Source of the DNA: Candidatus Gottesmanbacteria bacterium GW2011_GWC1_43_10
Lineage (GTDB): Bacteria; Patescibacteriota; Microgenomatia; UBA10105
NCBI GenBank assembly: GCA_000995415.1
Contig: LCEX01000001.1
Location: 60-64,059, forward strand
Length of the DNA stretch: 64,000 nt
Reading direction: 5' to 3'
Shown: in pieces, positions 5,646 through 63,698 of the stretch
How positions within the stretch are numbered: the first letter of the stretch is position 1
How the letters are laid out: every line of letters begins with the position of its first letter
Translations under genes and position numbers: made by a program
The notes under the pieces: model-generated
The model's database searches: none
Told to the model about the DNA's origin: nothing
Seen by the model: the letters and a program-made list of their open reading frames with translations, nothing else

Positions 5646-5652
5646 ATAGTTT

Positions 5653-6532: not shown

Positions 6533-6540
6533 ACGGTCTG

Positions 6541-7017: not shown

Positions 7018-7041
7018 TTTGACAGTTTTTCCATACATTTT

Positions 7042-12381: not shown

Positions 12382-12403
12382 CTAAACTAGTTTACCTAAG
12401 TTT

Positions 12404-13315: not shown

Positions 13316-13331
13316 CTTATTAACTTAAGGA

Positions 13332-15891: not shown

Positions 15892-15912
15892 ATATGTTAG
15901 GCTATTAACTAC

Positions 15913-19343: not shown

Positions 19344-19368
19344 TTCTGGTATATGATAGAATTAGACA

Positions 19369-21054: not shown

Positions 21055-21055
21055 T

Positions 21056-24612: not shown

Positions 24613-24621
24613 AAATACAAA

Positions 24622-32887: not shown

Positions 32888-32902
32888 AAAGCTTACCATT
32901 CT

Positions 32903-41478: not shown

Positions 41479-42253
41479 AAATAAGTTGTTGACACCAATC
41501 GTCGTCTTCTTACAAAAAACAGCAGTGTTATCTGCAGTAGCATGCCGATTAGTTAAATGGACAGGAAAACACAAGGATCCAATACATCCCAAGCATTTAG
41601 TCAAGATCAGAGATCCCTGGTACTTAGAATATTTACATGCGCAAGATATAGTTTTGGATGTAGGATGCAATAATGGACAACACACTCTTAAGGCTGCCAA
41701 AAAATGTAAGTTTATTTATGGCTTTGATTATGACCGAGGATTATTACAACTAGCTCAAAAGGAGGCTTCAAGGTTGAGTTTAAAAAATGTTGAATTTCAG
41801 ATTGGTAATGCGGAAAAGGCTTATCCATACAAAAAGCAAACTTTCAATATCATACTTTTCTTTGACGTGTTGGAACACTTGTATGAACGGGAGCAGGCGC
41901 TTAAAGAGATCCACCGGGTACTAAAACCAAAAGGAAAGTTACTCTTGTCTGTTCCAAATAAAGATACGAGCTGGAAAAGACTACAAGAAAGACTGGGTCT
42001 ACCATATTATTCAGATCCAGATCACAAAGTGGAGTTTACACAAAAAACGATTGAGCAACTGCTAAATAATACTGGATATAAAGCAACAAAAATTTTGCCA
42101 GTGACTCTGGATACACCGTGGGTAGGGGTAATCGACGTGGTAGGAGGGTTGTCTCTTTCTGCTTATGCCGCCATTTCCCGGTGGCGTCGGCAACAAGCTT
42201 TGTTCAACCCAAAGGAATCAATTGGTTGGGAAATAGTTTGTATCAAAAAATAG
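41456..42253 (+). CDS. class I SAM-dependent methyltransferase
   Basis: VLDVGCNNGQHTL (motif I), FNIILFFDVLEHL, VLKPKGKLLLSVPN (type 11/12 methyltransferase). Confidence 0.75.
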   Translation: MLSSSQIKNKLLTPIVVFLQKTAVLSAVACRLVKWTGKHKDPIHPKHLVKIRDPWYLEYLHAQDIVLDVGCNNGQHTLKAAKKCKFIYGFDYDRGLLQLAQKEASRLSLKNVEFQIGNAEKAYPYKKQTFNIILFFDVLEHLYEREQALKEIHRVLKPKGKLLLSVPNKDTSWKRLQERLGLPYYSDPDHKVEFTQKTIEQLLNNTGYKATKILPVTLDTPWVGVIDVVGGLSLSAYAAISRWRRQQALFNPKESIGWEIVCIKK

Positions 42254-43522: not shown

Positions 43523-45000
43523 AACATTTGGTATATTGGGGGATTTTTGCATTTCTTGCGATCTTAATTCGTGGTTACGGATATGGCTTAGGTGATCAAG
43601 TATTGCATTTGCCGTTACTTTATAGGTTGGAAGACGCCAATTTGTACCCGACAGATTCATTGTTTCCTTTGATTTTTAGCCACGTCACGCCATTTATCAG
43701 GTTAGTGGTTTTTCTTAATCAAACAGTATTTAAAGACTATTTCACGACATATTTTGTTTTCTATTTTTTGGGAAGTTGGTTGTTTTTTTTAGGTCTCTAC
43801 AAATTGACTTACTTAATAACTGACGATAAAACCGCTGCCCTGCTTAGCGGATGGTTTTTTATTTTACCTTTACATATCGGAGGCACTGCTTTAACTACAG
43901 TTGAGACAACTTTCGTACCACGACATCTCACCAATTTTTTCTTGATTTTAAGTTTAGTAGCACTTTTGCAAAAAAAATACTTACGATTGTTTTTTATTAA
44001 TGCGGTGATTTTACTCATTCATCCAATTACAGCAGTTTTATTATTTATAGCTACCACTTTTTGTATACTGGTATTGGATAAACAACGGTTTTTCCTCACC
44101 CTTTTAAAGGGTATAGGAATAATGTTATTGATTAGTATAAGCTTCTTGCCAGACTTTATTCGCGCTGTTCCGGCAAGTAGACTACCTTTACTGATGCCTG
44201 AGTCCTGGCTAGAAATTATTAAACTGCGCAATACCTATGCCTTTCCGTTACTTTGGACATTTAAAGGCTGGTTAAGCCTGATTTTATTGCTCATACCTAT
44301 AGCAGGTTACTTAGGTTGGAAAAAACATACAGGAAGAAACTTTAATTACGCGGATAAAGTCAGTTTATTTTTACTAGTAGGAGCGGCTTTTATTTTTGTA
44401 GGACAAATATTATTTACTTCATTATTGCCCTTAACTTGGATGATACCACTGCAACTGGGTAGAGTTTGGCAAATCCCGGCGACTTTATCTTTAATCTATT
44501 TAGCTTGGATTTTAAGTAAAATGGTCAAAAGGTTTTCGTTGACGCAAACGCAACTCGGTTTGTTATTAATTGGCTTTTTGCTAATAGCCTACTTTGTAAA
44601 AGATAAAGTCTGGTACCAACATCAATCTTCTGAATGGATTGAGACACAAAGATGGGCTCAAAGACACACCTCAGAGGACTGTACTTTTTTGGTGGATTTT
44701 TATTCTCAAGGATTTCGCGTTTTTTCCCAAAGAGCAATTGTAGGCGAATATAAGGACGGAACGCTGGCTTTTTACTCATCAGAATTTGCCCAGGATTGGT
44801 ACCAGAAATACAATTTATTTGGTGATACAAAAACTCATAGATACATGAACAACTTGGATAAAATATATGCCAATTACCCTTTTTCCTTTGTCGTGAGCGG
44901 GATATCCATTACAGCCAACTTGCCACCGATATACAAAAACAAAAATTATGGCATCTATGAGATGCCTATTAAAGAAAAAGGATGCAGTTTAAGAGTATGA
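43498..45000 (+). CDS. polytopic integral membrane protein, unknown family (candidate O-antigen polymerase/ligase-like or GT-C)
   Basis: More than 10 predicted TM helices plus a C-terminal soluble region. No recognised motif. Confidence 0.5.
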   Translation: MLPKVKSIKHLVYWGIFAFLAILIRGYGYGLGDQVLHLPLLYRLEDANLYPTDSLFPLIFSHVTPFIRLVVFLNQTVFKDYFTTYFVFYFLGSWLFFLGLYKLTYLITDDKTAALLSGWFFILPLHIGGTALTTVETTFVPRHLTNFFLILSLVALLQKKYLRLFFINAVILLIHPITAVLLFIATTFCILVLDKQRFFLTLLKGIGIMLLISISFLPDFIRAVPASRLPLLMPESWLEIIKLRNTYAFPLLWTFKGWLSLILLLIPIAGYLGWKKHTGRNFNYADKVSLFLLVGAAFIFVGQILFTSLLPLTWMIPLQLGRVWQIPATLSLIYLAWILSKMVKRFSLTQTQLGLLLIGFLLIAYFVKDKVWYQHQSSEWIETQRWAQRHTSEDCTFLVDFYSQGFRVFSQRAIVGEYKDGTLAFYSSEFAQDWYQKYNLFGDTKTHRYMNNLDKIYANYPFSFVVSGISITANLPPIYKNKNYGIYEMPIKEKGCSLRV

Positions 45001-50386: not shown

Positions 50387-51487
50387 TTACCCGTGGAGCT
50401 CCATTTTTATCTGATCAAAAACTGCTCGCAGCTTCTGGCCATACTTCTCTATCGAATAAGATTCGACAATAATCCGCCGGGCGTTTCTTTCGATTTTACT
50501 ACGTTTGGCCTGATATGTATTCAAAAAATGAATTGCCTTATATACTGCGTATTCATCACTTACAGGGACTTTTAGGCAATGAACTAAGTTTTGGAATTGA
50601 TATTCTTCAACCCCTGGGCTCTCGGTAAAAATGACGGCCTTACCGCAACTCATGGCGCGCATCGCCGTGCTTTGGCCGGCAAAGTGATAGTTAAATTTAG
50701 AAAGAATCAGTAAGTATTTTGCTTCCCAGATGCGTTGTCTTAAGTCTAAATAAGACAGATTATATTCAAAAACGACATTTTTAGGCATGTCATGTTTTAC
50801 GATATAAGGGTAAGTGACGACCCGAAATGTCTCTTGCGGAAAGTTGCGGGCAATCTTGGCGTAGAGTTGCCAGTCCCGTGAGGGGTCAGCCCCAATAATC
50901 AAAATTTCATTATTAGATAGAATCTTTTTCGGAGTAAAGAAGTCCGTGTCAATTCCAAACGGAATAAAAGAAAATTTTGAGAGCGGAAATTTGAGCATCT
51001 TAGCCAGTTTTTTACATTCTTGAAAACTTCCTCCTGCCACAAAATGATCAACAGCGCGCAAAATTTGTTGATAGAAATACAAAATTAACGGATTCTTCAT
51101 TGTTAACAGACCATCATACAGTCCTATTGTATTGAAGACCAAAGGTTTACGAACAAGTTTTAAAAACTTAAGTAAAGCAATTGGTAACCCGTAAGTATCA
51201 ACCGTGGCAAAAATTATATCTGACCGATTTAGGTCTTTTAACAAATAAATTGCTGGAAAAAGTGAAAAGCCAAGAGTTATGAATTTAGTAACAAAGATAT
51301 TTAACAAATGTTGACTGAACAATAAAGTTCTTGATTTAAACACTTTGTCACTAACTTTAACTGCACAATATTTATTTATTTCTGTTAAACCGTAAAAGAT
51401 ATCGCGCGGTGAGTCGTGTTGATAAGCGTTTTCGATTTCTTTTGTAACCGGTCTTCTAAAAACATACAAAATGGAGCGTTTTGACAT
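50387..51487 (-). CDS. putative GT-B-fold glycosyltransferase (divergent GT4-like)
   Basis: The C-terminal region FAGQSTAMRAMSCGKAVIFTESPGVEEY resembles the GT-B nucleotide-sugar binding helix. Otherwise no strong motif. Confidence 0.45.
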   Translation of the reverse strand: MSKRSILYVFRRPVTKEIENAYQHDSPRDIFYGLTEINKYCAVKVSDKVFKSRTLLFSQHLLNIFVTKFITLGFSLFPAIYLLKDLNRSDIIFATVDTYGLPIALLKFLKLVRKPLVFNTIGLYDGLLTMKNPLILYFYQQILRAVDHFVAGGSFQECKKLAKMLKFPLSKFSFIPFGIDTDFFTPKKILSNNEILIIGADPSRDWQLYAKIARNFPQETFRVVTYPYIVKHDMPKNVVFEYNLSYLDLRQRIWEAKYLLILSKFNYHFAGQSTAMRAMSCGKAVIFTESPGVEEYQFQNLVHCLKVPVSDEYAVYKAIHFLNTYQAKRSKIERNARRIIVESYSIEKYGQKLRAVFDQIKMELHG

Positions 51488-51610: not shown

Positions 51611-52780
51611 ATGAAAAAGCTCATTCCTTATGCTCGGCAGCAGATTGACGAAACTGATATACAGGCAGTAGTAAGGGTACTAAGATCGGATTTTCTTACC
51701 CAAGGAACTGCTGTTCCCCGCTTCGAAGATGCGGTCAGTCGGTACTGCGGAGTCAAGTACGCAGTGGCATACTCTTCAGGGACAGCTGCCCTTCACGGAG
51801 CTTGTTTTGCTGCCGGGATCAATAAAGACGATGAAGTGATCACGTCTCCTTTGACTTTTGCCGCATCGGCTAATTGTGTTTTATATTGCGGTGGGAAACC
51901 CATACTTGCTGATATTCGCTCTGATTTACCCTTGATTGATGTATCGCAAATTGCCAAAAAAATTACTAAAAAGACCAAAGCTATTATTCCCGTTGATTTT
52001 TCAGGGATTCCGGCTGACTATGACGACATAAATCAATTAGCTAGGAAGCATGGACTGATAGTCATTGCCGACAGTGCTCATTCACTAGGAGCTACCTACA
52101 AAGGAAAAAAAGTCGGAACACTGGCTGATATGACAGTATTTTCATTTCATCCGGTTAAACTTATTACGACAGGCGAAGGGGGGATGGTAGTCACGAACGA
52201 TAGAGATTTTTATGAAAAACTGCTACTTTTCAGGACGCATGGGATCACTAAAGATCCGCAAAAATTATTAAATAAAAATGTTGGACCATGGTATTATGAA
52301 ATGCAGGAGTTGGGTTTTAATTACAGATTGACAGATATTCAGGCAGCATTAGGTATTTCCCAGATGGAGAAAATAGAAATATTTATAGAGCGGCGGACAG
52401 AAATAGCCAGAAAATATATCGCGGCTTTCAAAAACGAAAAACACTTCAAAACTCTTAAATTTCTCAAAGACCGGACTTCAGCTTGGCATTTGTTTCCAGT
52501 CCTTTTAACTCCTCGGTTAGTTGATTACAAAAGGCAAATAGTAGAGGATTTACACAAACGAGGTATATTGGTCCAGATCCACTATATTCCTGTTCATTTA
52601 CATCCGTACTACAGAAACACATTTGGATATACAAATAGAAACTACCCGAAAGCGGAAATGTGGTACCACAGTGAGATATCGTTGCCGCTCTTCCCAGCAC
52701 TTACAAAAGAAGAGATAAAATATATTGTGACCACGGTTCTTGAAGAGATGCAAAAATACACTGTAAAATTACAGACTTAA
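51611..52780 (+). CDS. DegT/DnrJ/EryC1/StrS-family PLP-dependent sugar aminotransferase (PseC/ArnB-like)
   Basis: Conserved over the full length of the family. FSFHPVKLITTGEGGMVVTND carries the catalytic Lys region. N-terminal domain DFLTQGTAVPRFEDAVSRYCGVKYAVAYSSGTAAL. Confidence 0.9.
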   Translation: MKKLIPYARQQIDETDIQAVVRVLRSDFLTQGTAVPRFEDAVSRYCGVKYAVAYSSGTAALHGACFAAGINKDDEVITSPLTFAASANCVLYCGGKPILADIRSDLPLIDVSQIAKKITKKTKAIIPVDFSGIPADYDDINQLARKHGLIVIADSAHSLGATYKGKKVGTLADMTVFSFHPVKLITTGEGGMVVTNDRDFYEKLLLFRTHGITKDPQKLLNKNVGPWYYEMQELGFNYRLTDIQAALGISQMEKIEIFIERRTEIARKYIAAFKNEKHFKTLKFLKDRTSAWHLFPVLLTPRLVDYKRQIVEDLHKRGILVQIHYIPVHLHPYYRNTFGYTNRNYPKAEMWYHSEISLPLFPALTKEEIKYIVTTVLEEMQKYTVKLQT

Positions 52781-53821
52781 CAGAAATTTTCGAAACTCCG
52801 CATTAGCTTGAGAATCAGACATTTGTTTGGGAGGAGCTTTCATCAAAAATGAACAAACTTTCCAGGTGTCTTTTTGTTTTCCACGATTAACCAGCAATTT
52901 GGCTATGCGTATCGCATCCACCACAACTCCGGCACCATTGATGCTGATTTCATCTTCAATAACAGAGATAATAGATATAGGAACCCGTCCGAATATTTCC
53001 CCTTCTATTTTGATGTTGACCAACTTGTGCCCGGAAGGTTTACCGGTATAGAAAAATTTTACTGACGGCTCCGCATCTCCTTTTTCCAAAAAGTGTGTTA
53101 ATGCTTCACGTTTTGATTTTTCTTTTGATTTGGCTCGATACAATAAATTGAAGTGATCGGCATTTCCACCACGATTTTCCTGTTCAGATTTTGACACATT
53201 AATCCCGCGCATTTTCAGCAACTCTAATAAAAAACGATTAAGCATAGTTGCACCCAACTGACTTTTGATATCATCCCCTAATAGGACTAGCCCGTTATTT
53301 GTAAACTTCTTTCTCCATTCGGGTATGGTTGCTAGCGGGGTGGGGATACAGTTAATAAAACTGCAGTGTGCTTCAAGCGCCGCTTCTGCATATACATATG
53401 TTGCTTGTTCACCGCCAGATGGGACAAAGTTTACGACAATATCTGCCTTAGATTTTTTGAGAATATTTACAATATCGACCACTGGCGCATTACTTTCATG
53501 TACAAATGATTTTCTCATTTGATCTATGATGCCATCCAGAGTCGGGCCCCGGTGTACTACAGCATCATATTTGAGGGGATCGCATATTTTTAAAGTAACA
53601 TTCGGTTTTGCAGAAATTGCTTCATGAAGTTTTTTATTGACTTTTCGTTCATCCACATCAAAGGCGGCGACGAAGTTGATATCTTGTATCCGGTAGTTTC
53701 CGATTTTAGGATTTATCAGACCTCTGTTCTCTTTTGGATGTTTTGTATAGAATGCAACTCCCTCTACAAGTGCTTTGGTAAAGCTGCCAACACCAATAAT
53801 TGCGACATTGATCTTATTCAC
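52769..53821 (-). CDS. myo-inositol-1-phosphate synthase family (Ino1-like, NAD-dependent) enzyme
   Basis: [22 protein letters not shown] matches [34 protein letters not shown] matches [19 protein letters not shown], and [28 protein letters not shown] matches [28 protein letters not shown], all in the same order as in mycobacterial/archaeal-type MIPS. Confidence 0.75.
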   Translation of the reverse strand: [350 protein letters not shown]

Positions 53822-53879
53822 TAAGTTAAGTTAATCGTTTGATTACACAGGCACCATGTATTCTTGAGTCAATGCGATT

Positions 53880-53888
53880 TGATATAAT
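53880..53888 (+). promoter_or_regulatory. extended -10 promoter element TGATATAAT upstream of the PEP-utilizing gene (with AGGGA RBS at about 53907)
   Basis: TGaTATAAT at 53880-53888, 27 nt upstream of ATG 53916. AAGGGA 5-10 nt upstream of the start. An identical TGATATAAT occurs upstream of 60773. Confidence 0.4.
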
Positions 53889-53915
53889 TGTAGCACAATT
53901 TTGAAAGGGAAATAA

Positions 53916-55220
53916 ATGCACTTAATTAATTATGGTTGCCGGGAGGATGTAGCCGGAAAATTAAGAACAATCAAGTTACTAAAACAAATAAATCAAATCT
54001 TGCCTGGTGAAATCATAGTTCTTAAATTGTCCGGGGATTTATTGATCCCAGTTTTGCAAGCAATTGATAGGGGAGCAGTTGCCTTTATTGCAGATTGCGG
54101 AAAAACAAATCACGGAGTGATCGCTGCCAAAGAACTAGGCTTGCCTTTCTATATCGGTAACCAAAATGATTTGAGAAATGGCTATTATTACTCACTGTTA
54201 GAAAATCAAATTCATCCGGGTAAAATGCCCATAAAAACAAGTAAAAACGCAAACAGAAGATTAGCACCTGCTACTAATAAGAATTTATTTATTAATCTGG
54301 GTTTTCCTAAGCGGGTTTTAAAACACAACCCTCAACTATTTTCTGCAGTTGATGGAGTGGGGTTTGCACGTCTCGAATTTTGCATCGCAGAAATCATCGG
54401 TCGATTGCATCCGGTAGAATACCTGCGACGTTTTGGCGAAGAAAAATTGCTGATAGAAATATACAAAGAGTTTGCAAAGGTGGCTGATAAATTTAGCGGC
54501 AAACGCTTTTGGATCAGAACTGACGATTTCTCCCCTGCACAACTAGTCCAACTTGAAGCCGGAAAAAAATATGAGTCACACATAGGTAATGAACTGGTTA
54601 GTTTTAGAGGCATAAGTCGATCGATACATCCCGACTGGCAAAACTTGGGCAATCTGGAAAAGAAGTTAACCGGAGTAAGCTGGATAGGCATTCAATTTAA
54701 AGCTTTGAACATATTAGCCAGAGATTTTCCCAAAGTAAAATTTGGAGTGTTTGCTCCGATGGTACATGATGTTTCTGAATATAAAGTTTGGCGGAAGATA
54801 GCGGATAAATTTATTAAGCAGCCGATTGATTATGGAGTAATGGTGGAAGTTCCAGCATTGACAGGAAAAGGAATTACGCCGTTTATTAAAAGTAAACTTA
54901 TTGATTTCATGATTTTTGGGACAAACGACTTAACGGCGTTGACTTTGGGTATAGATAGATCTGACAACCGATTAGCATACTTATTTAACGAAGAAAATCC
55001 GGTAGTTCTAAATTCCCTTTATGAAACCATCGCTATTTGTAAAAAGGCAAAAGTACTTACTGCAATTGGTGGAGCAGCAGCTTCAAGGCCAAGTCTGATA
55101 AAAAAATTATTCACAGCCGGGATAGATATTTTTTCGGTGAATCCAGATCGGGAAACTATTAACCAAACTCGGCAATTTATTTATAAATTAGAACGAGGTA
55201 AAAAAAATGCAAAAAATTAA
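53916..55220 (+). CDS. PEP-utilizing enzyme: phosphohistidine mobile domain plus PEP/pyruvate-binding TIM barrel (PEP synthase/PPDK C-terminal half), lacking ATP-grasp domain
   Basis: N-terminal swivel domain ...[31 protein letters not shown], and [21 protein letters not shown] matching the PPDK/PEPS signature [29 protein letters not shown] corresponds to the GLCRTEHMF region. Confidence 0.7.
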   Translation: [434 protein letters not shown]

Positions 55221-56226
55221 AATATTAATTACCGGAGCCAGTGGTGACTTGGGAAGGGTGATGGTTCTATACTTATCCACGTTTAAGAAGTTTGAAATAT
55301 ATGCGGCAGATAGTCAGATTGACTTATTGGCTGCAGCCCCATCTAGTAAAAGATATCTTTTGCCCAAAGCAGATACTCTGGAATATATACAGGAATTGAA
55401 CCAACTCCTAGAGAAAAATCATATAGACATATTATGGTTGGGATCTGACTTGGAAATTAGACGTGTGACACAGGACAAAGATAACATCTCCGCTAAATTT
55501 TGGTACCCACCTCATAAAGCGATTGTTACAATGCAAAATAAATTTTTATGTAATCAGCTTTGGCAAAGTAAAAATGTGGCGGTTCCTAATTCGATTGTTA
55601 TAAAGGAACCGTCCCAGCTTAAGCCAGATGTTTGGTTAAGACCTGTGGATCATATCGGTGGCGGAGGTAAGCTGGCTGTGCACGCTGTCACAAAAATTCA
55701 AGCCAAACAGTGGTTAGATCAACACCATGGATGGGGAAAATTCACCATGAGTGAATTTTTGCCTGGTGTCATGTTTGGTTTTGATTCTCTATGGAAAAAC
55801 GGAAAATTGTTAAGTTTTTCTATCAAAGAAAGAGTGCGTTATTCCAGAGACTCCTCAATCAGTTTTACAACGAGTGTGGTAAAAACCTCAAGCAATCAAC
55901 AGGCGATAAAGATGGCAATTAAAGCAATTAAAACTATCCTACCCCACCCAGATGGCGTTTTTTCTGTGGATTTACGTGAAAACAGTCAGGGGATTCCTTG
56001 CGTAACCGAAATCAATCCAGGCAGGTTTCTTACCACCTCTATTCTGTTATTTAAAGAACTAAGTTATGATCTGCCATTAGATTATCTCAATTTGATTTTA
56101 GGGAAAAAGATACCAGTAAGAAAACAAATAAGAGAAAATCAGTACCTATTCTTTGTTAAAGGCTTAATTAGAGTAGTTGATGAAAAAGATATGTTGGTAG
56201 AGAATGCCCGGAGATACTGGAAATAA
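55207..56226 (+). CDS. ATP-grasp domain protein (pre-ATP-grasp Rossmann-like N-terminus plus ATP-grasp core)
   Basis: WLRPVDHIGGGGKLAV (Gly-rich loop). SEFLPGVMFGFDSLWKNGKLL, and GVFSVDLRENSQGIPCVTEINPGR (E-x-N metal-binding end). 14-nt overlap with the PEP-utilizing gene. Confidence 0.65.
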   Translation: MQKIKILITGASGDLGRVMVLYLSTFKKFEIYAADSQIDLLAAAPSSKRYLLPKADTLEYIQELNQLLEKNHIDILWLGSDLEIRRVTQDKDNISAKFWYPPHKAIVTMQNKFLCNQLWQSKNVAVPNSIVIKEPSQLKPDVWLRPVDHIGGGGKLAVHAVTKIQAKQWLDQHHGWGKFTMSEFLPGVMFGFDSLWKNGKLLSFSIKERVRYSRDSSISFTTSVVKTSSNQQAIKMAIKAIKTILPHPDGVFSVDLRENSQGIPCVTEINPGRFLTTSILLFKELSYDLPLDYLNLILGKKIPVRKQIRENQYLFFVKGLIRVVDEKDMLVENARRYWK

Positions 56227-56227
56227 C

Positions 56228-56935
56228 ATGAAATATGCGTTAATTAGTGATATTCATGCTAATCCCCTAGCCTTAGAGTTAGTGCTTCGAGATATTACTC
56301 TGCATGATATAGACAAGTTACTCATCGCCGGAGATTTCGTGGGTTATTATTATCGCCCTGATGTTTGTTTCGAACTACTTGAGGAATGGAACTGGATAGG
56401 CGTACAGGGCAATCACGACCAAACATTACAAGATTTTGTGAGCGGCAATTCAGTTATGATGCAAATTTACCGTGAGGAATATGGAAGTGGTTTAGATGAG
56501 GCGGTAAAAAGACTTACCTTAAATCAAAGAAAGTTGCTTTCGTCACTTCCGGAAAAGAGGGAACTGTTGATTGATGAGCAAAAAGTTTTGTTGTGTCATG
56601 GTTCACCCTGGTCGATCAATGAACGCATCTATCCTGATGCCAAACTAGAAGTATTTACGCGCATATCCAGTTTAGAGTATGACTGGGTTATTTTGGGACA
56701 TACACATTATCCGTTGGTTCAAGAAACAAATCAAACGTTGATTGTCAATCCTGGATCTGTCGGACAACCGCGCGATATTGGAGGTCTGGCGAGTTGGATG
56801 GTGGTTGATTTTGGTAAGCGTACCTGCCAGTTAAAACGAGTTAAATTTCCTACCCAAAAACTGATTCGGGAAACAAAACTCTTGGATCCAAAAGTCCCAT
56901 ATTTAGCTGAGGTTTTGATGCGTAAACCAAGATAA
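56228..56935 (+). CDS. calcineurin-like metallophosphoesterase (YfcE/MJ0936-like)
   Basis: MKYALISDIHAN, LLIAGDFVGY, GNHD, CHGSP, ILGHTH form the classic metallophosphoesterase motif series D-x-H ... GD ... GNH[DE] ... H ... GH-x-H. Confidence 0.8.
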   Translation: MKYALISDIHANPLALELVLRDITLHDIDKLLIAGDFVGYYYRPDVCFELLEEWNWIGVQGNHDQTLQDFVSGNSVMMQIYREEYGSGLDEAVKRLTLNQRKLLSSLPEKRELLIDEQKVLLCHGSPWSINERIYPDAKLEVFTRISSLEYDWVILGHTHYPLVQETNQTLIVNPGSVGQPRDIGGLASWMVVDFGKRTCQLKRVKFPTQKLIRETKLLDPKVPYLAEVLMRKPR

Positions 56936-56936: not shown

Positions 56937-58004
56937 TTATTTTTTGGCTATGAATTTCCAAGATAGTGGCGTGCCGGAGGCTATATTTTGAGTTGCCGTG
57001 GCTCCGATAATCTTCTGATAGAACCTTGGGGGTAAACCGTTTGCAGGTCTGATAGAGCGTACATTATCCCATGTAAATTTTTCGCCAACCTTAACAGGCC
57101 GGATGACGAACAGCGATCTTCGCCATCCATATTCGCGCATTTGCGCCTCTCCTTTTTTAACGCCATATTTTACTTTTCCCATGGCCTGTTCGGTGATTCG
57201 GATCGACTTGACCATTTGAGCAAATTCACTTGGTACTAATGAAAAACCTGCATCGACCGCCCCTTTTTTTCTTGAAAGAGTCAGATGTTTTTCGATGATT
57301 GACGCTCCCAATGCGACCCCTGCCACCGGTATTTCCCATCCCAGAGTATGATCTGAGATCCCCACAGGAACACCAAATGTTTGGAGCAAATGAGGGACGG
57401 TTTTTAGATGCATCTCTTCAGGCGGAGCCGGATATGCACTGGTGCATTTAAGCAAAGCTATTTCGCGCGCGCCGGATTTGCGAGCCGCATTCACTGCTTC
57501 CCTGATTTCGGAGAGAGTAGCCATCCCAGTTGAAATAATTAGCGGTTTGCCGGTATGGGCCATTTTTTGGATCAAAGGTATATCCACCAATTCAAATGAA
57601 GCTATCTTGTGTACAGGTGGATTAACCTCTTTTTCTAAGTAGTCGACTGCAGTTTGATCAAAAGCAGTCGAAAAAAAATCCAGGCCCAACTTAGTAGCTA
57701 ATTTTTTGAGTTTGAGGGCCCAATCCCATGGAGTATAAGCTTTTTGGTAGAGGGAGTATAGGTAATTCCCTGACCATAGGGATCCGGGGTCGGAGATTTT
57801 AAACAGCGGACTTCTGACATTAAGAGTCATCGTATCGGCGGTATAAGTTTGGAGTTTGACTGCATCAGCGCCGGCAGTTTTAGCTGCTCTGACAATTTCT
57901 TCTGCCTCTGAATAGTCCTGTTTATGATTACCGGACATTTCGGCAATGATATAAGTAGGATGATCCCGGCCTATCTTTTTACCGCCAATTGCAAAACTTT
58001 TCAT
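56937..58004 (-). CDS. N-acylneuraminate/pseudaminate/legionaminate synthase family (NeuB/PseI/LegI-like), PEP-dependent, with C-terminal SAF domain
   Basis: FAIGGKKIGRDHPTYIIAEMSGNHKQDYSEAEEIVRAAKTAGADAVKLQTY matches the NeuB N-terminal signature. C-terminal RSLFVIRPVKVGEKFTWDNVRSIRPANG is the SAF/antifreeze-like domain. Confidence 0.9.
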   Translation of the reverse strand: MKSFAIGGKKIGRDHPTYIIAEMSGNHKQDYSEAEEIVRAAKTAGADAVKLQTYTADTMTLNVRSPLFKISDPGSLWSGNYLYSLYQKAYTPWDWALKLKKLATKLGLDFFSTAFDQTAVDYLEKEVNPPVHKIASFELVDIPLIQKMAHTGKPLIISTGMATLSEIREAVNAARKSGAREIALLKCTSAYPAPPEEMHLKTVPHLLQTFGVPVGISDHTLGWEIPVAGVALGASIIEKHLTLSRKKGAVDAGFSLVPSEFAQMVKSIRITEQAMGKVKYGVKKGEAQMREYGWRRSLFVIRPVKVGEKFTWDNVRSIRPANGLPPRFYQKIIGATATQNIASGTPLSWKFIAKK

Positions 58005-58038: not shown

Positions 58039-58710
58039 TCAATCTTTGATATTTCTCACAACTTGAAACGCTTCTGCATTTTGAAATCCCACCTCCATAC
58101 CTCTATAGTGAGCGAGCGTTTTGATGCCTTCAGCAGATCGGGGATGGGGAAAAGAGCGAAGTTCATCTTTATAAATTTTCATTAACTTTACTTTTTTTTC
58201 TATATATTGAGAGATATTTATGTATTCTGTTGGAGAAAACATAGTTTGGGGTGATTTGTGTTGCCATTCAGTTGAAGATAGGACTTCAAAAGAAACAATT
58301 TTTTTTACAAAAAATCCAGGTTGGGGTCGGCAGGCAGTCAGTACTGCCTGAAAAGTGAGACGATGATCAATATTTAAATCAGAGGCAAAATGTGTATAAA
58401 CGAGATTGGGTTTGATTTTAAAAATAGTGCGTTCGACAACTTTAGTAATCGTAAGTAATGGCAGTGAATCAAATTTGTTATCGGGAAGTTTTTCAAGAAT
58501 AAGTTCCTTGGCGCCTATTTTTTTTGCCACCTGTTGAGCTTGTTTGGCACGTTTTTGAATACTACCTTGATCATCTCTGGCTGATTCGCCATCTCCTAAA
58601 ATCAGGATGTATAAGAAATCTCTGTCAGCCACATGTTTGAGCATTATTCCCCCGGCGCCTAGAACCTCATCGTCTGGGTGAGCCGCAACAACCATGACTT
58701 TATTTTTCAT
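58039..58710 (-). CDS. PIG-L/LmbE-family N-deacetylase (start at MKNKVMVVAAHPDDE, ATG 58710; ORF opens at 58815)
   Basis: VMVVAAHPDDEVLGAGG is the LmbE/PIG-L zinc-binding signature. ILILGDGES follows. Confidence 0.8.
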   Translation of the reverse strand: MKNKVMVVAAHPDDEVLGAGGIMLKHVADRDFLYILILGDGESARDDQGSIQKRAKQAQQVAKKIGAKELILEKLPDNKFDSLPLLTITKVVERTIFKIKPNLVYTHFASDLNIDHRLTFQAVLTACRPQPGFFVKKIVSFEVLSSTEWQHKSPQTMFSPTEYINISQYIEKKVKLMKIYKDELRSFPHPRSAEGIKTLAHYRGMEVGFQNAEAFQVVRNIKD

Positions 58711-59392
58711 AAACTTCCACTTGGGCGGCCAGCTTATTTTTTCGCAAACGCGCTTTGGAAAATTCGAACCGTAATCCTTTGGTCTGCAAAAAAGCTTTTG
58801 GATATTCAGGCGCATCTAGCATGCGGATAAAATCATAAGCATCAGAAATTGTTTTAACCGGTTCGAGATTACTTTCTTCTGGTAGCCGTCTCTTAAAAAG
58901 AGTAATTTTTCCTGTTTGTGGAGTAGGAGTTGGTTCATTTTTTATAATGTGCGGGATCATGTCTGAAAAAACAATTTGTGAAAGTCGGGCGTAGATTTGT
59001 TCGGCACTACCTTTGAGTGATACTGGTCGTTTAAGATAAATATTTCCTGTGTCCATGCCGTCGCTAACTCGTATTGCCGAAATTTTGGTATTCTTAAAAC
59101 CCCGAATAATTAAATTTTGGAGCGGACTCCCACCTCGGCCAAACGGCAAGTCCGTCATATGAAAAACCACACATTCAAAATTGCGCCAAATCTCTTCCGA
59201 AATGATCCAAGACCAATGAGGGAAAAAAATGTAACGGGGGTGGAGCCGTCTGAGGTGTTCCACCGTCATTTCAGATTTATTTTGAATGAGATGATAGTTC
59301 TTTTTGGCACTAAAATATTTATGGAAGTTAGCAATATTCCAAGGCCTGATAGTAGCGATGATATATGTTTTAGACACCATAGTTTTTCCCAA
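58700..59392 (-). CDS. formyltransferase-domain protein (sugar N-formyltransferase, Fmt/ArnA-N-like)
   Basis: FFPHWSWIIS...FHMTDLPFGRGGSPL matches the formyl_trans_N H-x-S-x-LP-x-x-RG-x-x-P motif. 230 aa with no C-terminal Met-tRNA binding domain. Confidence 0.65.
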   Translation of the reverse strand: MGKTMVSKTYIIATIRPWNIANFHKYFSAKKNYHLIQNKSEMTVEHLRRLHPRYIFFPHWSWIISEEIWRNFECVVFHMTDLPFGRGGSPLQNLIIRGFKNTKISAIRVSDGMDTGNIYLKRPVSLKGSAEQIYARLSQIVFSDMIPHIIKNEPTPTPQTGKITLFKRRLPEESNLEPVKTISDAYDFIRMLDAPEYPKAFLQTKGLRFEFSKARLRKNKLAAQVEVYEK

Positions 59393-59396: not shown

Positions 59397-60029
59397 TTAT
59401 TTTTTTAATAACCACCAATGGCAGTCATCGAATCCGGCAGAGGCATCCAAAAAACCATGTTTAAGAAGGGTAAGACGGGGATATAACGCCAACCATTCTT
59501 TATCAAACGGACGTTTAAATAAGGCGTCAGTCAATCCGCGGTAGGGGATAACCGTTTTTTCCTGAGCGAAGTATTCGATAGTAAGAATGTACTTTCGGGA
59601 AGCAGTATGGATACGGCGTAGCGCTTGAGCCAAATTGGCGTCTCCGATATGGATGAGTACGCCGATAGTAAATACTAGATCAAAGGCGTTTTTCCACGTA
59701 CTATCAAAAATACTTTTTTCAAAAATACGGGCGCTGGGGACCAGTTTTCGAGCAGTGGCAACAGCTATTTTGTTAGGTTCTAGACCCATGAGTTTGAAAT
59801 CAGGATTAATTTTGTGTAATACATCGAGGTTCCCGCCAATATTACAACCCACCTCCAGAATAGACTTAATATCGGGAAAATCGCGAAATACAGATTTAAA
59901 AAAAGCAGCTCTTTTCCTAAAACGTGAAAGGTCAGAGTTACGTTTAATGTATTCGTTACCAAACGTTCCTTGCCAGTAAGCAAGTTGTTTTGTTTTATTG
60001 ACCATAGTGCTTTTGCTGAACATCAGCAT
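59397..60029 (-). CDS. class I SAM methyltransferase resembling the pseudaminic-acid-biosynthesis-associated methylase family (TIGR03587-like)
   Basis: QLAYWQGTFGNEYIKRN is the N-terminal hallmark of that family as I recall it. ILEVGCNIGGNL is SAM motif I. About 200 aa. Confidence 0.6.
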   Translation of the reverse strand: MLMFSKSTMVNKTKQLAYWQGTFGNEYIKRNSDLSRFRKRAAFFKSVFRDFPDIKSILEVGCNIGGNLDVLHKINPDFKLMGLEPNKIAVATARKLVPSARIFEKSIFDSTWKNAFDLVFTIGVLIHIGDANLAQALRRIHTASRKYILTIEYFAQEKTVIPYRGLTDALFKRPFDKEWLALYPRLTLLKHGFLDASAGFDDCHWWLLKK

Positions 60030-60717
60030 TAAGTTTTGCTATTTTAGGGTGTTTTTCCAACAGCTCAATAATCTCCAAACTGTTTTTTTTATGAGCCTGG
60101 TATTTCTGGATAAGTGTTTTGACTGCCAAAAAATCTTCTTGAGTATCTACTGTAATTCTATATGCAGATTCGTCTTTTGGTTGTGTCAGTTGTTTGATTA
60201 TAAATCGATCGGGATGGTTTCGCCAAATGTAGGGTGTGACATGTTCGCGTTCTAGTAGTTCTGTAGCTTTTTGAAAAGCCTCGGTCAGAGCCGCAAAGGT
60301 AAAGATTTCAAAATCGAACCCCCGGGGATAAGTGCGTTTGACCGTATTGGAAAGATAATCGCAACCAGATTTTTGAAACATCCTCAAACCTTTTGCGATC
60401 AAATCCCCGTCTATCAGAGGGCAGTCGGACGTGATCCTAATTATCGTTGTTAAGTCAAAGGCCTGTGCGCAGTAATAGAACCTGGCCAAAACGTCGTTTA
60501 AATCTCCCCTGAAAACTGGCACTGAAATGGTTTGACAAAGTTGAACGATCGCATCATCTTTACGATCAATGGAGGTGGCTACGATTATAGGTATTTTTGA
60601 CTCTTGGGCTCTTTTTAAATGATATTCCAGAAGGGTTTGATTATTAATTTTGGCTAACACTTTACCGGGTAAACGGATAGAGGACATCCGAGCTTGGGTA
60701 ATAATAGCTGTTTTCAT
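59995..60717 (-). CDS. acylneuraminate cytidylyltransferase family (CMP-nonulosonic acid synthetase; PseF/SpsF/NeuA-like)
   Basis: AIITQARMSSIRLPGKVL matches the SpsF/PseF A-I-I-Q-A-R-M-G-S-T-R-L-P-G-K motif. About 240 aa. Confidence 0.8.
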   Translation of the reverse strand: MKTAIITQARMSSIRLPGKVLAKINNQTLLEYHLKRAQESKIPIIVATSIDRKDDAIVQLCQTISVPVFRGDLNDVLARFYYCAQAFDLTTIIRITSDCPLIDGDLIAKGLRMFQKSGCDYLSNTVKRTYPRGFDFEIFTFAALTEAFQKATELLEREHVTPYIWRNHPDRFIIKQLTQPKDESAYRITVDTQEDFLAVKTLIQKYQAHKKNSLEIIELLEKHPKIAKLNADVQQKHYGQ

Positions 60718-60772: not shown

Positions 60773-62680
60773 ATGGGTAAGAAAAATCGTACAATAATCA
60801 TCTTCGCGTTTACGCAAAAACAGGCAGAATGGGGAGTTGATTACCGCCAAAAACATACTAGTGACCAAACTATCATTTTAGCTCCGACGATTGAGGCTAC
60901 TCTCACGCTCCAAAAATACCAGCAGCAGGCATTTGAGTATTTTAATTTATTGTCACAAAATAGTCCGTTACATTACCCGCAAGTTCTCTTGCCTTATTCC
61001 GAGAAAAGCCAGGAATTAGTGAAGTATTTTAACAAACACGTGGAACAGATCGAGGTGTGCGGTATCAATTTCATCGAGATTTTTGACTATTTACTCTGGG
61101 GAGAGTTTTTAGATGTTTTTTTGGCATATGCGCTCTTCAATGAAATTGAAAAGAAGTGGCACCCGGATGCATTTATCGGATTTAAAGACGCGGCTGATGT
61201 TTCGCTAGCCAGTTGGTCGCCTCGACAATTTTCTTACGCCGCTCTGATTTGTGCTTTTTTTGCCCCACCCGAAAAGGTAAAATGGCAGGAAATTTTAGAT
61301 CCCTCCCACCAATCGAGGATTTTTGATTACACGTTTTATCTACCAACGTTGTTTCGGACAGTTTTAGAAATGGGTGGCGGATGGATTCTAAAAAAATATT
61401 CAAATTTGAAAAATCGCTTATTCAAAATAAAACCACACGAAGTTGACTTTCTCTTGTTCTCCGGCGGATTTAACTTGTATTATAACAAGTCGTTGTTTGA
61501 GCACCTTTTATCAAACCGTAAGTATCTTGTAACTACCGGGGATCATCTTTTGGAACACGAATGGTTACTTAAAACTCAAAGTTTTCACTACACTCCACTA
61601 GCACATTTCTTGACAAGGCAATTATCTGACCAAGTCGATAAAACGCACCAGCAAATTTCCAAAAAAATCGATTCAATTCTCACCCAAACAGAAGTCACCC
61701 AATTACTTTTTCCCAGCTCGCTTCCCGAGGTCTGCAAGCAAGCGTGTTTGGCAAAGTTACGGTTGGTGTTTCGCCAATACACGCTAAAATTTGTCCGCCA
61801 AACTATATTAGCCCAAGAAGTCATCCGCAGCTCTCGACCCAAACTGGTAATTACCACACACGATCCAGGACCCTCTGCATTGCCGTTTGTGTTTTTGGCC
61901 AAGCGCAAACACATACCCACGTTAGTCTTATTACATGGATTTCACGACGTGCATTTTGGAGCCGATCACAAGAGTGACTACATGGCTTTGTGGGGGAAAT
62001 TAGTCCAAAATAGATTTGAAAAAATACTTCATAAACCCCGTAAGACTCTTTTTACTGTGGGTTTTCCCCATTTGGATGAGATTTTTCAAAAAAAGCAGGC
62101 TTTTTGGCAACGAAATCTTGGGCAATTTAAACCACGAAACCCAGTCAAAATAGGATTTCTGTGCACATTATATCCGCCCAATACTTTTATTCTGACAAAA
62201 TACTTTCATGAGGTGATGGAAAAGTTTAAGCAGTTACCATTTCCCATAGAAGTATGGATTCGAACTCATTCCGGGCAAATTGTGCATGAGCTTAGGAGTT
62301 TGGGAGATCATTACGGGGTGAAAACGATGATAAATCCAAAGACGACTTTAAACGAATTCTTGGAATCAACAGATGTGATTGTGTCTTGGGATACGACAGC
62401 CATTTTGTGGCCAATGCTATTTGGCAAACCTTTGTTTTACATGAGTCCTTGGTGGGCGGAAGCCAATATCCCAGCAAACAAATATCAGGCGGCATGGACA
62501 GTAAAAAACGCTGCAGAGTTGGTAAAAGGACTTGATTATTTGGTACATCATCCAGAAGCTGTAACCAAACTTCATCCAGGTCAACGCCAATTTTTAAACG
62601 ACGCATTGGGAGTGATTGATGGAACTTCTGGAGAAAAACTAGCAAATCTGATTGAGCATTTACTGACGAGTTCTGCTTGA
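60773..62680 (+). CDS. large soluble protein of unknown family; candidate GT-B-like nonulosonate transferase or PseG-type hydrolase fusion
   Basis: 635 aa, no TM helices. C-terminal VIVSWDTTAILWPMLFGKPLFYMSP resembles a GT-B C-terminal donor-binding segment. It sits between the CMP-sugar synthetase and PseB genes. Confidence 0.4.
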   Translation: MGKKNRTIIIFAFTQKQAEWGVDYRQKHTSDQTIILAPTIEATLTLQKYQQQAFEYFNLLSQNSPLHYPQVLLPYSEKSQELVKYFNKHVEQIEVCGINFIEIFDYLLWGEFLDVFLAYALFNEIEKKWHPDAFIGFKDAADVSLASWSPRQFSYAALICAFFAPPEKVKWQEILDPSHQSRIFDYTFYLPTLFRTVLEMGGGWILKKYSNLKNRLFKIKPHEVDFLLFSGGFNLYYNKSLFEHLLSNRKYLVTTGDHLLEHEWLLKTQSFHYTPLAHFLTRQLSDQVDKTHQQISKKIDSILTQTEVTQLLFPSSLPEVCKQACLAKLRLVFRQYTLKFVRQTILAQEVIRSSRPKLVITTHDPGPSALPFVFLAKRKHIPTLVLLHGFHDVHFGADHKSDYMALWGKLVQNRFEKILHKPRKTLFTVGFPHLDEIFQKKQAFWQRNLGQFKPRNPVKIGFLCTLYPPNTFILTKYFHEVMEKFKQLPFPIEVWIRTHSGQIVHELRSLGDHYGVKTMINPKTTLNEFLESTDVIVSWDTTAILWPMLFGKPLFYMSPWWAEANIPANKYQAAWTVKNAAELVKGLDYLVHHPEAVTKLHPGQRQFLNDALGVIDGTSGEKLANLIEHLLTSSA

Positions 62681-62711: not shown

Positions 62712-63698
62712 ATGTTTGATTGGAGTAAACAAGTGATACTTTTGACCGGTGGTACCGGTTCTTTTGGTCAGGCTTTCACTCAATACCTTCTGAAATATCA
62801 TTCTCCCACAGCCCTTAGAATATTTAGCCGAGACGAATTTAAACAGTACGAGATGCAACAGAGATTTCAGCATCCATGTTTACGTTTTTTCATTGGTGAT
62901 GTGCGTGACCCAGAACGGCTAGCTCGAGCTATGGATGGCGTGACGTTGGTGGTTCATGCGGCTGCACTCAAGCAAATTGTCGCTTGCGAATACAACCCAA
63001 ATGAAGCAATCAAAACAAACATCATTGGGACGATGAACGTTTTGAATGCGGCGCTGGATGCTCAAGTTGAACGGGTGTTGGGATTGATCACCGACAAAGC
63101 AGTCAGCCCAATCAATTTATATGGAGCCACAAAGCTATGTATGGAAAAATTGCTGATCCAGGGAAATTCGTATCATGGAAAACACCGAACAGCGATCAGT
63201 TGTGTCAGATACGGAAATGTGGCTAATAGCCGTGGAAGTGTAGTGCCGCTTTTTAGGAAACAGAAAGAAACTGGGACATTGACAATTACTCACAAAGACA
63301 TGACACGTTTTTGGATCACTCTTGAAGAAGGGGTCAAATTCGTGGTTCGGACCATCGAAACCATGCAAGGGGGAGAAGTATTTGTACCCAAAATGTCTAG
63401 TTTCAAAATCATGGATCTAGCTCGGGCAATTGCCCCAGAAGCCAAACACAGATTTGTGGGTATACGTCCTGGAGAAAAACTGCATGAAGATTTGATTAAC
63501 CATCACGAAGCCATAAACGTGGTTGAGTTGGCCGACCATTTTATCATCAAGCCCGGAAACGTTTTTTGGACAAAAGATAAAAGACTAACAGCTTTTGACG
63601 GAAAAACAGTAGTTGCCGATTTCTCATACAATAGTAAAACTAACCCTCATTATTTATCAATACTGGACTTACAAAAAAGTTTAGAGAAACTCTTTTAA
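62712..63698 (+). CDS. pseB: UDP-GlcNAc 4,6-dehydratase, inverting (PseB/FlaA1/CapD-like); first enzyme of pseudaminic/legionaminic-type pathways
   Basis: VILLTGGTGSFGQAF...RIFSRDEFKQYEMQ...FFIGDVRD...HAAALKQIVACEYNPNEAIKTNIIGTMNVLNAA...TDKAVSPINLYGATK...YGNVANSRGSVVPLF...MTRFWITLEE aligns block by block with H. pylori/C. jejuni PseB. Confidence 0.9.
   Translation: MFDWSKQVILLTGGTGSFGQAFTQYLLKYHSPTALRIFSRDEFKQYEMQQRFQHPCLRFFIGDVRDPERLARAMDGVTLVVHAAALKQIVACEYNPNEAIKTNIIGTMNVLNAALDAQVERVLGLITDKAVSPINLYGATKLCMEKLLIQGNSYHGKHRTAISCVRYGNVANSRGSVVPLFRKQKETGTLTITHKDMTRFWITLEEGVKFVVRTIETMQGGEVFVPKMSSFKIMDLARAIAPEAKHRFVGIRPGEKLHEDLINHHEAINVVELADHFIIKPGNVFWTKDKRLTAFDGKTVVADFSYNSKTNPHYLSILDLQKSLEKLF

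Follow-up and report, generated by a model that had tools for sequence, protein, structure and literature searches.

The locus and its MIPS-like gene

We analysed a gene resembling those for myo-inositol phosphate synthase (MIPS) in a 64,000-nucleotide stretch of DNA (hereafter the window; contig LCEX01000001.1, positions 60 to 64,059, assembly GCA_000995415.1) of Candidatus Gottesmanbacteria bacterium GW2011_GWC1_43_10. The host belongs to the candidate phyla radiation (CPR), as a first-pass annotation made from the letters alone had guessed. The gene itself was already annotated, at NCBI as "Inositol 1-phosphate synthase" (KKS42191.1); what is new is the recognition of a variant clade (the crown clade), in which the active site is remodelled and a methyltransferase is the characteristic partner. 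The open reading frame (ORF) was verified at exactly 52769-53821 on the minus strand, encodes 350 aa from a GTG start, and its N-terminus ([12 protein letters not shown]) agrees with the start of the homologs. All motifs listed in the first-pass annotation are present at these coordinates, namely GVGSFTK (residues 10-16), FVAAFDVD (residues 50-57), RGPTLDG (residues 91-97) and [11 protein letters not shown] (residues 182-192). The coordinates also bear out the gene arrangement it described: the gene converges on the pseC gene of pseudaminic acid (Pse) biosynthesis (51611-52780, plus strand) with a 12-nt overlap and diverges from a gene for a phosphoenolpyruvate (PEP)-binding PEP-utilizers_C protein (53916-55220, plus strand) across 94 nt. 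A promoter and terminator scan of 52500-54100 gave fewer promoter-like sites than shuffled sequences. Base composition gave no sign of recent transfer: the GC content near the gene is 0.38, like the rest of the window.

The gene and the motifs of its product are as follows (Mtb, Mycobacterium tuberculosis).

52769..53821, minus strand: MIPS-fold gene, crown-clade "I310" variant of inositol-3-phosphate synthase
53774..53794, minus strand: dinucleotide-binding loop G10-V-G-S13-F-T-K16, with clade-specific Ser13/Lys16 versus Asn25/Ser28 of Mtb Ino1
53246..53278, minus strand: [11 protein letters not shown], residues 182-192, Asp pair and loop for binding the sugar phosphate, conserved as in canonical MIPS
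53153..53176, minus strand: MIPS "Block D", N216-R-G-G-N220-A-D222-H223, Asn/Asn/Asp retained, His223 clade-specific (Phe in canonical short MIPS; PMC5614600)
53111..53128, minus strand: K-x-x-x-K catalytic lysine pentapeptide, S-K233-E-K-S-K237, conserved (PMC5614600)
52937..52957, minus strand: signature segment E289-D290-E291-I292-S293-I294-N295, Ile292 at the Block-A Asp position (Mtb D310, yeast D438), Asp290 clade-invariant, Ile294 for Pro312

Family and fold

Both Pfam models of the family, proposed as a check in the first-pass annotation, exceeded their gathering thresholds, PF01658 (Inos-1-P_synth) with 54.4 bits (cut-off 27) and PF07994 (NAD_binding_5) as a borderline pass with 25.1 bits (cut-off 25). 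In the NCBIfam scan the actinobacterial short-MIPS model TIGR03450 aligned end to end (E = 2.8e-81) and was the only MIPS model to match. The best match of known structure is M. tuberculosis Ino1 (1GR0; E = 7e-73, ~45% identity, 249 bits), followed among PDB sequence matches by Ari2 (6K96) and Thermotoga TM1419. An AlphaFold (AF2) model built from 22 homologs (pLDDT 87.7, pTM 0.88) predicts the MIPS fold, a Rossmann NAD domain with an inserted catalytic/oligomerisation domain, and Foldseek placed 1GR0 at the top (TM 0.81/0.86), followed by 6K96, 3CIN, 1U1I and 7NWR. The protein is thus a MIPS-fold, NAD-binding family member, as the two Pfam models, the full-length TIGR03450 alignment and the best sequence and structure match agree. 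The Gfo/Idh/MocA- and DapB-like oxidoreductases, named in the first-pass annotation as the competing families, did not score better than MIPS; DapB-type reductases ranked far behind in the fold search, reaching a TM of only ~0.4.

Active site of the crown clade

We aligned 118 close homologs with Mtb Ino1 and Ari2. In all 118 and in the window protein the Mtb-numbered residues D69, D71, D110, N170, D196, D197, K199, S200, N229, N233, D235, K248, K252, K284, S311, N313, D320 and K346 are kept. The NAD loop and the K-S-Q-x-G-A-T phosphate loop are retained in the clade, and the catalytic lysine network K233, K237, K266 and K328 (yeast K369, K373, K412 and K489; Mtb K248, K252, K284 and K346) is present in 118 of 118 sequences. 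Block D (N-x-x-G-N-x-D; N216, N220 and D222) and the loop D-D-x-K-S-x-x-G-x-T (G182-T192) are likewise conserved. The catalytic Lys and Asp residues, whose conservation the first-pass annotation had proposed to check, are therefore all kept with one exception, the Block-A Asp, which as judged from the alignment is missing at the homologous position. Further changes fixed in the clade are N25S, S28K, F236H, V308D and P312I/V (Mtb numbering), in addition to D310I, which is found in 118 of 118.

The role assigned here to the Block-A Asp (yeast D438, A. fulgidus D332) rests on PMC5614600, where it is called invariably maintained over 172 MIPS sequences, interacts with a second cation and makes one of four direct substrate contacts. 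An exhaustive HMMER search of 1.84 billion cluster representatives yielded ~130 full-length representatives for alignment, among which position 310 is Asp in nearly all (the few exceptions seem truncated or divergent) and Ile is confined to the clade of the query. The three nearest outgroups (49-54% identity) already have K28, H236 and D308, with N25, D310 and P312 unchanged. The locus-derived sequences accordingly fall into a canonical grade (N-S-F-V-x-D-S-P-N), an intermediate grade (N-K-H-D-E-D-S-P-N, i.e. with both Asp308 and Asp310) and a crown grade (S-K-H-D-E-I-S-I-N), which includes the window protein.

Aligned as a clade profile with fungal and yeast MIPS, E289-D290 pairs with the eukaryotic E-D438 and E291-I292 appears as an insertion; in the AF2 model D290 is predicted to end the strand 280-290 and I292 to begin the following helix. 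The catalytic Asp may therefore have been relocated by two residues rather than simply lost, since D290 aligns with D438 and the intermediate clade has both Asp residues, and the latter clade would offer a plausible path for such a relocation.

Distribution and gene neighbourhoods of the clade

A protein search covered 5.8 billion proteins and the best 120 matches were examined, which are ~350 aa long and share 63-85% identity. They come from CPR (Magasanik-, Kerfeld-, Uhr-, Peregrini- and Saccharibacteria), from DPANN archaea (Woese-, Nano-, Micr- and Aenigmarchaeota) and from uncultured Gammaproteobacteria. Comparison of these sequences places the protein in a strongly conserved, cross-domain clade distinct from standard Ino1. 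Identity of 63-85% over CPR, DPANN and gammaproteobacterial metagenome-assembled genomes (MAGs) argues for a functional enzyme under selection, and the clade is a horizontally shared, mobile branch of the short (Ino1-type) MIPS family. In the literature searched we found no characterised member of the crown clade, no description of the clade, its Asp replacement or its methyltransferase pairing, and nothing that connects MIPS with CPR/DPANN or with Pse clusters or reports a prokaryotic pair of MIPS and O-methyltransferase. Among the representatives collected, one of canonical type (P0138, 837 aa) is split by an intein with a LAGLIDADG endonuclease, and in a Thaumarchaeota MAG (L040, 5616-8372) an intein-bearing eRF1 gene adjoins an intermediate-clade MIPS gene.

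Loci were collected from species-representative genomes (38), from metagenomes (68) and by exact-protein look-ups, and de-duplication left ~56 independent crown-clade and ~20 intermediate-clade loci. The crown loci were analysed by unbiased clustering of flanking ORFs, by a census of Pfam families in 150 proteins flanking the gene at 33 loci and by tblastn with a marker panel. Counts among the ~56 crown loci are as follows.

28 of ~56: S-adenosylmethionine (SAM) methyltransferase directly adjacent
18 of ~56: adjacent methyltransferase of the TylF type (PF05711)
10 of ~56: adjacent methyltransferase of the Methyltransf_11/23 type
8 of ~56: acetate-CoA-ligase-like AMP-binding enzyme with a small carrier protein and a 4'-phosphopantetheinyl transferase (PPTase)
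about 10 of ~56: TrmB sugar-type regulator
4 of ~56: nonulosonate genes within 10 kb
2 of ~56: NeuB/PEP-utiliser Pse cluster

The dominant partner of the crown clade is thus a methyltransferase, drawn from two unrelated families. Of the first 11 TylF genes, 10 share the strand of the MIPS-like gene, nine of these with a gap of -8 to +9 bp. Loci with the AMP-ligase often contain DegT- or PseB-like genes too. CDP-alcohol phosphatidyltransferase, inositol monophosphatase (IMPase) and glycosyltransferase (GT) were not among the 25 commonest neighbour Pfam families of the census, whereas characterised bacterial MIPS genes typically adjoin CDP-alcohol transferases and the like (bioRxiv 10.1101/2021.04.26.441525). 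In the intermediate clade a distant methyltransferase neighbour occurs in three of ~20 loci (L046, L104 and L105), the others lying amid unrelated genes; the idea that methyltransferase partners are exclusive to the Ile clade was rejected on account of these three. Another intermediate-clade protein (P0124) is a fusion of a HAD phosphatase with MIPS, which points to a phosphorylated product that is then dephosphorylated. At the outgroup locus P0122 no partner gene was seen.

Two-gene modules of a methyltransferase and the MIPS-like gene recur in CPR and DPANN at >65% identity (L005 7122-9056, L009 7148-9053, L018 9245-11041, L054 and many others); often with a TrmB regulator nearby, they look like a mobile small-metabolite module. 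In L054 (2029-9062) the MIPS-like gene follows a sugar ABC importer and the methyltransferase. The nearest relative, 76% identical and from a Saccharibacteria-labelled MAG (L011), lies in a single same-strand operon (2565-18470) of, in order, a HAD phosphatase, an NTP-transferase, three TagF-like phosphotransferases, a PPTase, two truncated DegT-like proteins, the MIPS-like protein, an acetate-CoA-ligase-like AMP-ligase, a carrier protein, a methyltransferase, a polysaccharide deacetylase, a NeuC-type epimerase and CTP_transf_3. By analogy this operon suggests a hypothetical polymer of the poly(cyclitol phosphate) type. L035 has NeuB, NeuC and CTP_transf_3 within 10 kb. In L055 (2080-6662) an APH-family (aminoglycoside-kinase-like) kinase gene follows the MIPS-like gene after 4 bp, and genes for a PIG-L deacetylase, a family-4 GT (GT4) and a GpgS-like (glucosyl-3-phosphoglycerate synthase) family-2 GT (GT2) converge on this pair; the gene set resembles a pseudo-oligosaccharide or compatible-solute pathway.

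The Pse cluster and glycosylation island

In the window the gene stands in a Pse cluster. PseC (TIGR03588, 502 bits vs cut-off 423), PseI (TIGR03586, 449 vs 340) and the Pse-associated methylase (TIGR03587, 188 vs 112) exceeded their cut-offs, the PseB-like Polysacc_synt_2 protein scored 320 bits, and with the PseF model the CTP_transf_3 cytidylyltransferase reached no more than 16.6 bits. No PseG or PseH was identified among the Pse genes of the window. The neighbouring features are the following.

50387..51487, minus strand: 366-aa weakly GT4-like glycosyltransferase, upstream of PseC
51611..52780, plus strand: PseC aminotransferase, TIGR03588 above cut-off
53916..55220, plus strand: PEP-binding protein with PpsA phospho-His and PEP-utilizers_C domains, without an N-terminal ATP-grasp
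55207..56226, plus strand: ATP-grasp protein, module gene two
56204..56935, plus strand: metallophosphoesterase (YfcE-like), module gene three
56937..58004, minus strand: PseI pseudaminic acid synthase, TIGR03586 above cut-off
58039..58815, minus strand: PIG-L/LmbE-family de-N-acetylase; PIG-L also adjoins the MIPS-like gene in L016 and is two genes off in L055
58700..59392, minus strand: formyltransferase-family protein
59397..60029, minus strand: Pse-biosynthesis-associated methylase, TIGR03587 above cut-off, unrelated to the partner methyltransferases of the clade elsewhere
59995..60717, minus strand: CTP_transf_3 cytidylyltransferase, CMP-nonulosonate synthetase type
60773..62680, plus strand: 635-aa ORF without a Pfam or PDB sequence match, C-terminal ~280 aa distantly TagF/Glyphos_transf-like
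62712..63698, plus strand: PseB-like Polysacc_synt_2 dehydratase

The PIG-L and formyltransferase ORF calls overlap by 116 nt on the same strand (58700-58815); the PIG-L start probably lies downstream of the first possible start codon, and other callers give 223 aa. The C-terminal ~280 aa of the 635-aa ORF are 23% identical to the L011 TagF-like protein (pairwise E = 6e-11), which makes it a candidate GT-B transferase or phosphotransferase for a Pse-containing polymer.

The placement in a Pse cluster, pointed out as unexpected in the first-pass annotation, is real and unusual, since only two of ~56 independent loci have it. The second is the CPR MAG locus L016 (same contig as L065). There CTP_transf_3 flanks the MIPS-like gene on one side, and on the other side follow PIG-L, a metallophosphoesterase, ATP-grasp, the PEP-binding protein, DUF218, GNAT, PseI, a B12-radical-SAM enzyme, PseC and PseB, so that the PEP-binding/ATP-grasp/phosphoesterase/PIG-L module accompanies the MIPS-like gene in both. 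The partner proteins of window and L016 are ~50-57% identical and the MIPS-like proteins stand on separate branches of a neighbour-joining (NJ) tree, unsupported as that tree is, which suggests two independent placements. The recurrence of the MIPS-like gene in nonulosonate and surface-polymer loci is real but infrequent, and with two of ~56 the protein is not a regular component of Pse clusters.

The PEP-binding family is small (71 database matches). In nonulosonate (NeuB/CTP_transf_3) clusters its members recur next to a free-standing ATP-grasp protein and to a metallophosphoesterase or HAD phosphatase; a fusion of NTP_transferase with the PEP-binding protein exists (P0296), and the module could make a PEP-derived N-acyl or phospho modification of Pse. 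In L049, L050 and L051 its partners are ATP-grasp and/or a phosphatase or nucleotidyltransferase. We rejected the possibility that the PEP-binding/ATP-grasp/phosphatase module requires the MIPS product, as these three loci are MIPS-less.

The whole window (1-64000) is a single glycosylation island with ~8 GT2 and ~6 GT4 genes and a series of PMT_2/GT-C-like membrane proteins of 500-650 aa; it also holds a flippase and several epimerases/dehydratases. A strong class-I SAM methyltransferase (Methyltransf_31/11/25; 41456-42253, plus strand) lies amid GT genes 10 kb upstream, and BLAST found no relation between it and the methyltransferases partnering the MIPS clade elsewhere. Further genes of the island are listed below.

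3003-5306: YfhO
8657-10660: Beta_propel protein
10650-12227, minus strand: NAGPA phosphodiester glycosidase with FecR domain
34627-35832: PIG-V-like Mannosyl_trans2
43498-45000: DUF6798

The Pfam scan of the window covered its ORFs with the exception of six large ones (17718-26259 and 29444-34630). Inositol-lipid enzymes (CDP-alcohol phosphatidyltransferase, IMPase and the CDP-inositol-forming cytidylyltransferase IPCT) gave no motif match in the six-frame translation of the window and none among the ORFs scanned. The inositol-phosphate transferases and IMPases that the first-pass annotation had suggested looking for in the genome were thus sought in part of it, and they appeared neither in the window ORFs scanned nor in the 25 commonest neighbour families of the clade.

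Interpretation

The reading that we favour, at evenly balanced confidence, is that of an active cyclitol-phosphate synthase, which would supply a tailored building block, in this genome probably for the surface glycan of the island, and not a lipid precursor. We infer its catalytic activity, its substrate, the compensation by D290 and the fate of its product as follows. The enzyme would bind a hexose 6-phosphate, most likely glucose 6-phosphate (G6P); tightly bound NAD+ would oxidise the sugar, an intramolecular aldol reaction would close the ring and the product would be reduced back, the outcome being an inositol-phosphate-type cyclitol phosphate. D290, with the new His223 and Lys16, would probably assume or alter the role of the lost Asp. 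The product would serve not for classical inositol lipids but as a tailored building block, and in roughly half of the genomes the enzyme would act with an O-methyltransferase to which it is translationally coupled; elsewhere the gene shares an operon with genes for an acyl-AMP ligase and a carrier protein, or belongs to a teichoic-acid-like operon. The cyclitol (phosphate) would most likely be a component or decoration of the island's surface glycan in two CPR genomes, that of the window and one other.

Several findings weigh against this reading. The NeuB/PEP-utiliser placement is limited to the window and L016, and in both the MIPS-like gene is on the strand opposite to its Pse neighbours. 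The PEP-binding gene occurs in the NeuB clusters L049, L050 and L051 without a MIPS-like gene, and in L007, L015, L017 and the P0029 locus the MIPS-like gene lies amid unrelated housekeeping genes. The NJ tree of the clade carries no support values. No cyclitol-phosphate-specific nucleotidyltransferase or phosphotransferase was identified in the window, where the TagF-like ORF is a distant match. The TIGR03450 score of 273.4 bits is below the equivalog cut-off of 638. Finally, Ile292 stands at the Block-A Asp position in the window protein and in every crown-clade sequence, and the loss of a substrate-contacting Asp reported to be invariant could mean a different reaction or substrate instead of compensation.

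Doubtful, yet to be taken seriously, is that the protein is an ordinary myo-inositol-3-phosphate synthase for general needs (osmolyte, redox thiol or lipid head groups) whose place in the Pse cluster is incidental, given the fluid gene order of small, recombining CPR genomes. The full-length similarity to Mtb Ino1, the existing annotation as such a synthase, the retention of all Lys, Asn and Asp residues bar one, and the alignability of D290 with yeast D438 are consistent with it, as are the strand opposite to the Pse neighbours in window and L016, the position of most clade members outside glycan clusters (some amid housekeeping genes) and the PEP-binding module found elsewhere without the MIPS-like gene. 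It is opposed by the loss of the Block-A Asp together with three or four further invariant clade-specific changes near the active site, by the score well under the equivalog cut-off, by the lack of CDP-alcohol phosphatidyltransferase and IMPase in the scanned window ORFs and the 25 commonest neighbour families, by a patchy cross-domain distribution at 63-76% identity that looks accessory and not housekeeping, and by the recurrence of one five-gene module beside the gene in two genomes that stand on separate branches of the tree. Of the genuine-MIPS interpretation offered in the first-pass annotation the family therefore stands, whereas the assignment as such is less secure, the Block-A Asp being lost at the homologous position and the score being 273 against 638 bits. 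Those active-site changes might instead reflect neofunctionalisation, which we consider improbable and which overlaps the explanation that we favour: a MIPS-fold enzyme with a different substrate or product, the candidates including a sugar phosphate with an O-methyl or amino group, a further epimer of hexose 6-phosphate, or an inosose phosphate released for transamination. With the coupled methyltransferase it would yield a methylated cyclitol not yet known from prokaryotes, and Ile292/Ile294 would form a hydrophobic pocket at the site where the Asp had bound a hydroxyl. D310I, P312I/V, N25S, S28K and F236H are fixed in the clade, the lost Asp is among the four direct substrate contacts (PMC5614600), and Ari2 (6K96), the second-best PDB match, shows that the fold can change its reaction. 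Furthermore, methyltransferases of two unrelated families were recruited beside the gene, mostly at gaps of 0-30 bp. The MIPS-like gene is flanked by DegT-type aminotransferases in the window, L011 and L066, and followed after 4 bp by the APH-family kinase gene in L055. However, the unchanged phosphate loop, Lys network and Block D fit standard G6P chemistry, D290 may simply stand in for D310, and the methyltransferase neighbours in three of ~20 intermediate loci that keep D310 imply that methylation needs no Ile.

The first-pass annotation had also considered a repurposed oxidoreductase/cyclase acting on a nonulosonate intermediate (a UDP-sugar, a 2,4-diamino-6-deoxy hexose or Pse), which now seems very improbable. 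Only the physical placement speaks for it, the gene lying beside PIG-L in L016 and, in the window, between PseC and the PEP-binding module. The intermediates of the Pse pathway are either nucleotide sugars or 6-deoxy sugars that carry no phosphate. In the protein the sugar-6-phosphate loop K-S-Q-x-G-A-T, K346 and the Lys network are intact, ~54 of 56 clade loci lie outside Pse clusters, ~52 have no detected nonulosonate gene within 10 kb (four of ~56 do), and Pse clusters with the same accessory module occur without the gene. A catalytically dead homologue, either a pseudoenzyme or a regulator, might explain the loss of the Block-A Asp and is hardly credible, given that all other catalytic and NAD-binding residues are invariant in >100 sequences, which span two domains of life at 63-85% identity, that the replacement residues are themselves invariant and that the gene is tightly operonic with enzymes.

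We tentatively raise the further and rather unlikely proposal that the Ile310 crown clade represents a new activity in place of MIPS: a remodelled, possibly cation-site-free cyclitol-phosphate synthase that with its O-methyltransferase would make a methylated or otherwise tailored cyclitol new to prokaryotes, the pair being exchanged among CPR, DPANN and Gammaproteobacteria, and in glycan islands would place a cyclitol phosphate in a pseudaminic-acid-containing or teichoic-acid-like polymer.

Significance

With its fixed set of catalytic residues, MIPS is considered to be among the most conserved enzymes in biology. A large natural clade minus one of these residues and under strong selection offers a ready test of the role of the Asp, be it metal binding, substrate contact or neither. 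Moreover, the clade is concentrated in CPR and DPANN organisms, with tiny genomes and few biosynthetic pathways, and the conservation of a shared synthase and methyltransferase module in such genomes points to a metabolite or surface component important to the episymbiotic lifestyle. For thousands of metagenomic proteins the automatic label "inositol-1-phosphate synthase" may be too specific. The window locus contributes a candidate non-sugar building block added to a pseudaminic-acid glycan cluster.

Comparison with known systems

Mtb Ino1 (1GR0; TIGR03450), the best sequence and structure match, has the same length and domain order and shares with the window protein the NAD loop, D196/D197, the K-S-Q-x-G-A-T loop, N229/N233/D235, K248/K252/K284/K346 and D320. 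It differs in that the window protein has the substitutions D310I, P312I, V308D, F236H, N25S and S28K, and in that the window ORFs scanned contain no mycothiol or phosphatidylinositol genes near the gene. The combination of MIPS, GT4, phosphatase, PIG-L and ligase might recall mycothiol or glycosylphosphatidylinositol (GPI)-like synthesis (MshA/PIG-A, MshB/PIG-L); this was rejected, as the MshA and MshB models were unmatched. For the PIG-L proteins near the gene (window, L016 and L055) the best NCBIfam match was BshB1 with 52-55 bits against a cut-off of 182, the GT4 of L055 scored 24.7 bits against 462 on MshA, and the GT4-like ORF of the window gave no MshA match. No relation between the PIG-L proteins of L055 and the window was detectable by BLAST.

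Ari2 of Streptomyces citricolor (6K96), a five-membered-cyclitol-phosphate synthase, is more distant (E = 4e-43, TM 0.79, ~30% identity, 151 bits against 249 for Ino1). It reportedly uses fructose 6-phosphate in aristeromycin biosynthesis, and it provides the precedent for a short MIPS-fold enzyme that performs another cyclisation in a specialised pathway. However, Ari2 keeps the Block-A Asp and has Ala at 199 (K199 lost) and His at 71, none of which the window protein shares; the latter is thus closer to Ino1 than to the Ari2 type, and nothing ties the crown clade to carbocyclic nucleosides. The MIPS BT_1526 of Bacteroides thetaiotaomicron and the archaeal and Thermotoga MIPS (1U1I, 3CIN) have the same fold and would be expected to share the overall chemistry, at only 16-24% identity. 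Such MIPS genes adjoin CDP-alcohol phosphatidyltransferase, phosphatase or NTP-transferase genes (bioRxiv 10.1101/2021.04.26.441525), whereas the neighbours in the crown clade are methyltransferases, TrmB and acyl ligases.

A pairing of MIPS-derived cyclitol with SAM-dependent O-methylation, as seen in about half of the clade loci, resembles the plant myo-inositol O-methyltransferase (IMT) route. In plants MIPS, IMPase and IMT lead to ononitol and pinitol. The plant IMTs belong to Methyltransf_2, whereas the partners in the clade are of the TylF type (PF05711) or the Methyltransf_11/23 type; no methylated inositol from CPR or DPANN is documented in the literature searched, and in the window no such methyltransferase is adjacent to the gene. 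From the teichoic-acid (TagD/TarI, TagF, DltA/DltC) and CDP-inositol (IPCT/DIPPS) pathways the window differs in having only the distant TagF-like ORF (60773-62680) and a cytidylyltransferase of the CMP-nonulosonate type. The likeness to these pathways lies in L011, whose operon would activate an alcohol phosphate and polymerise it into a surface polymer.

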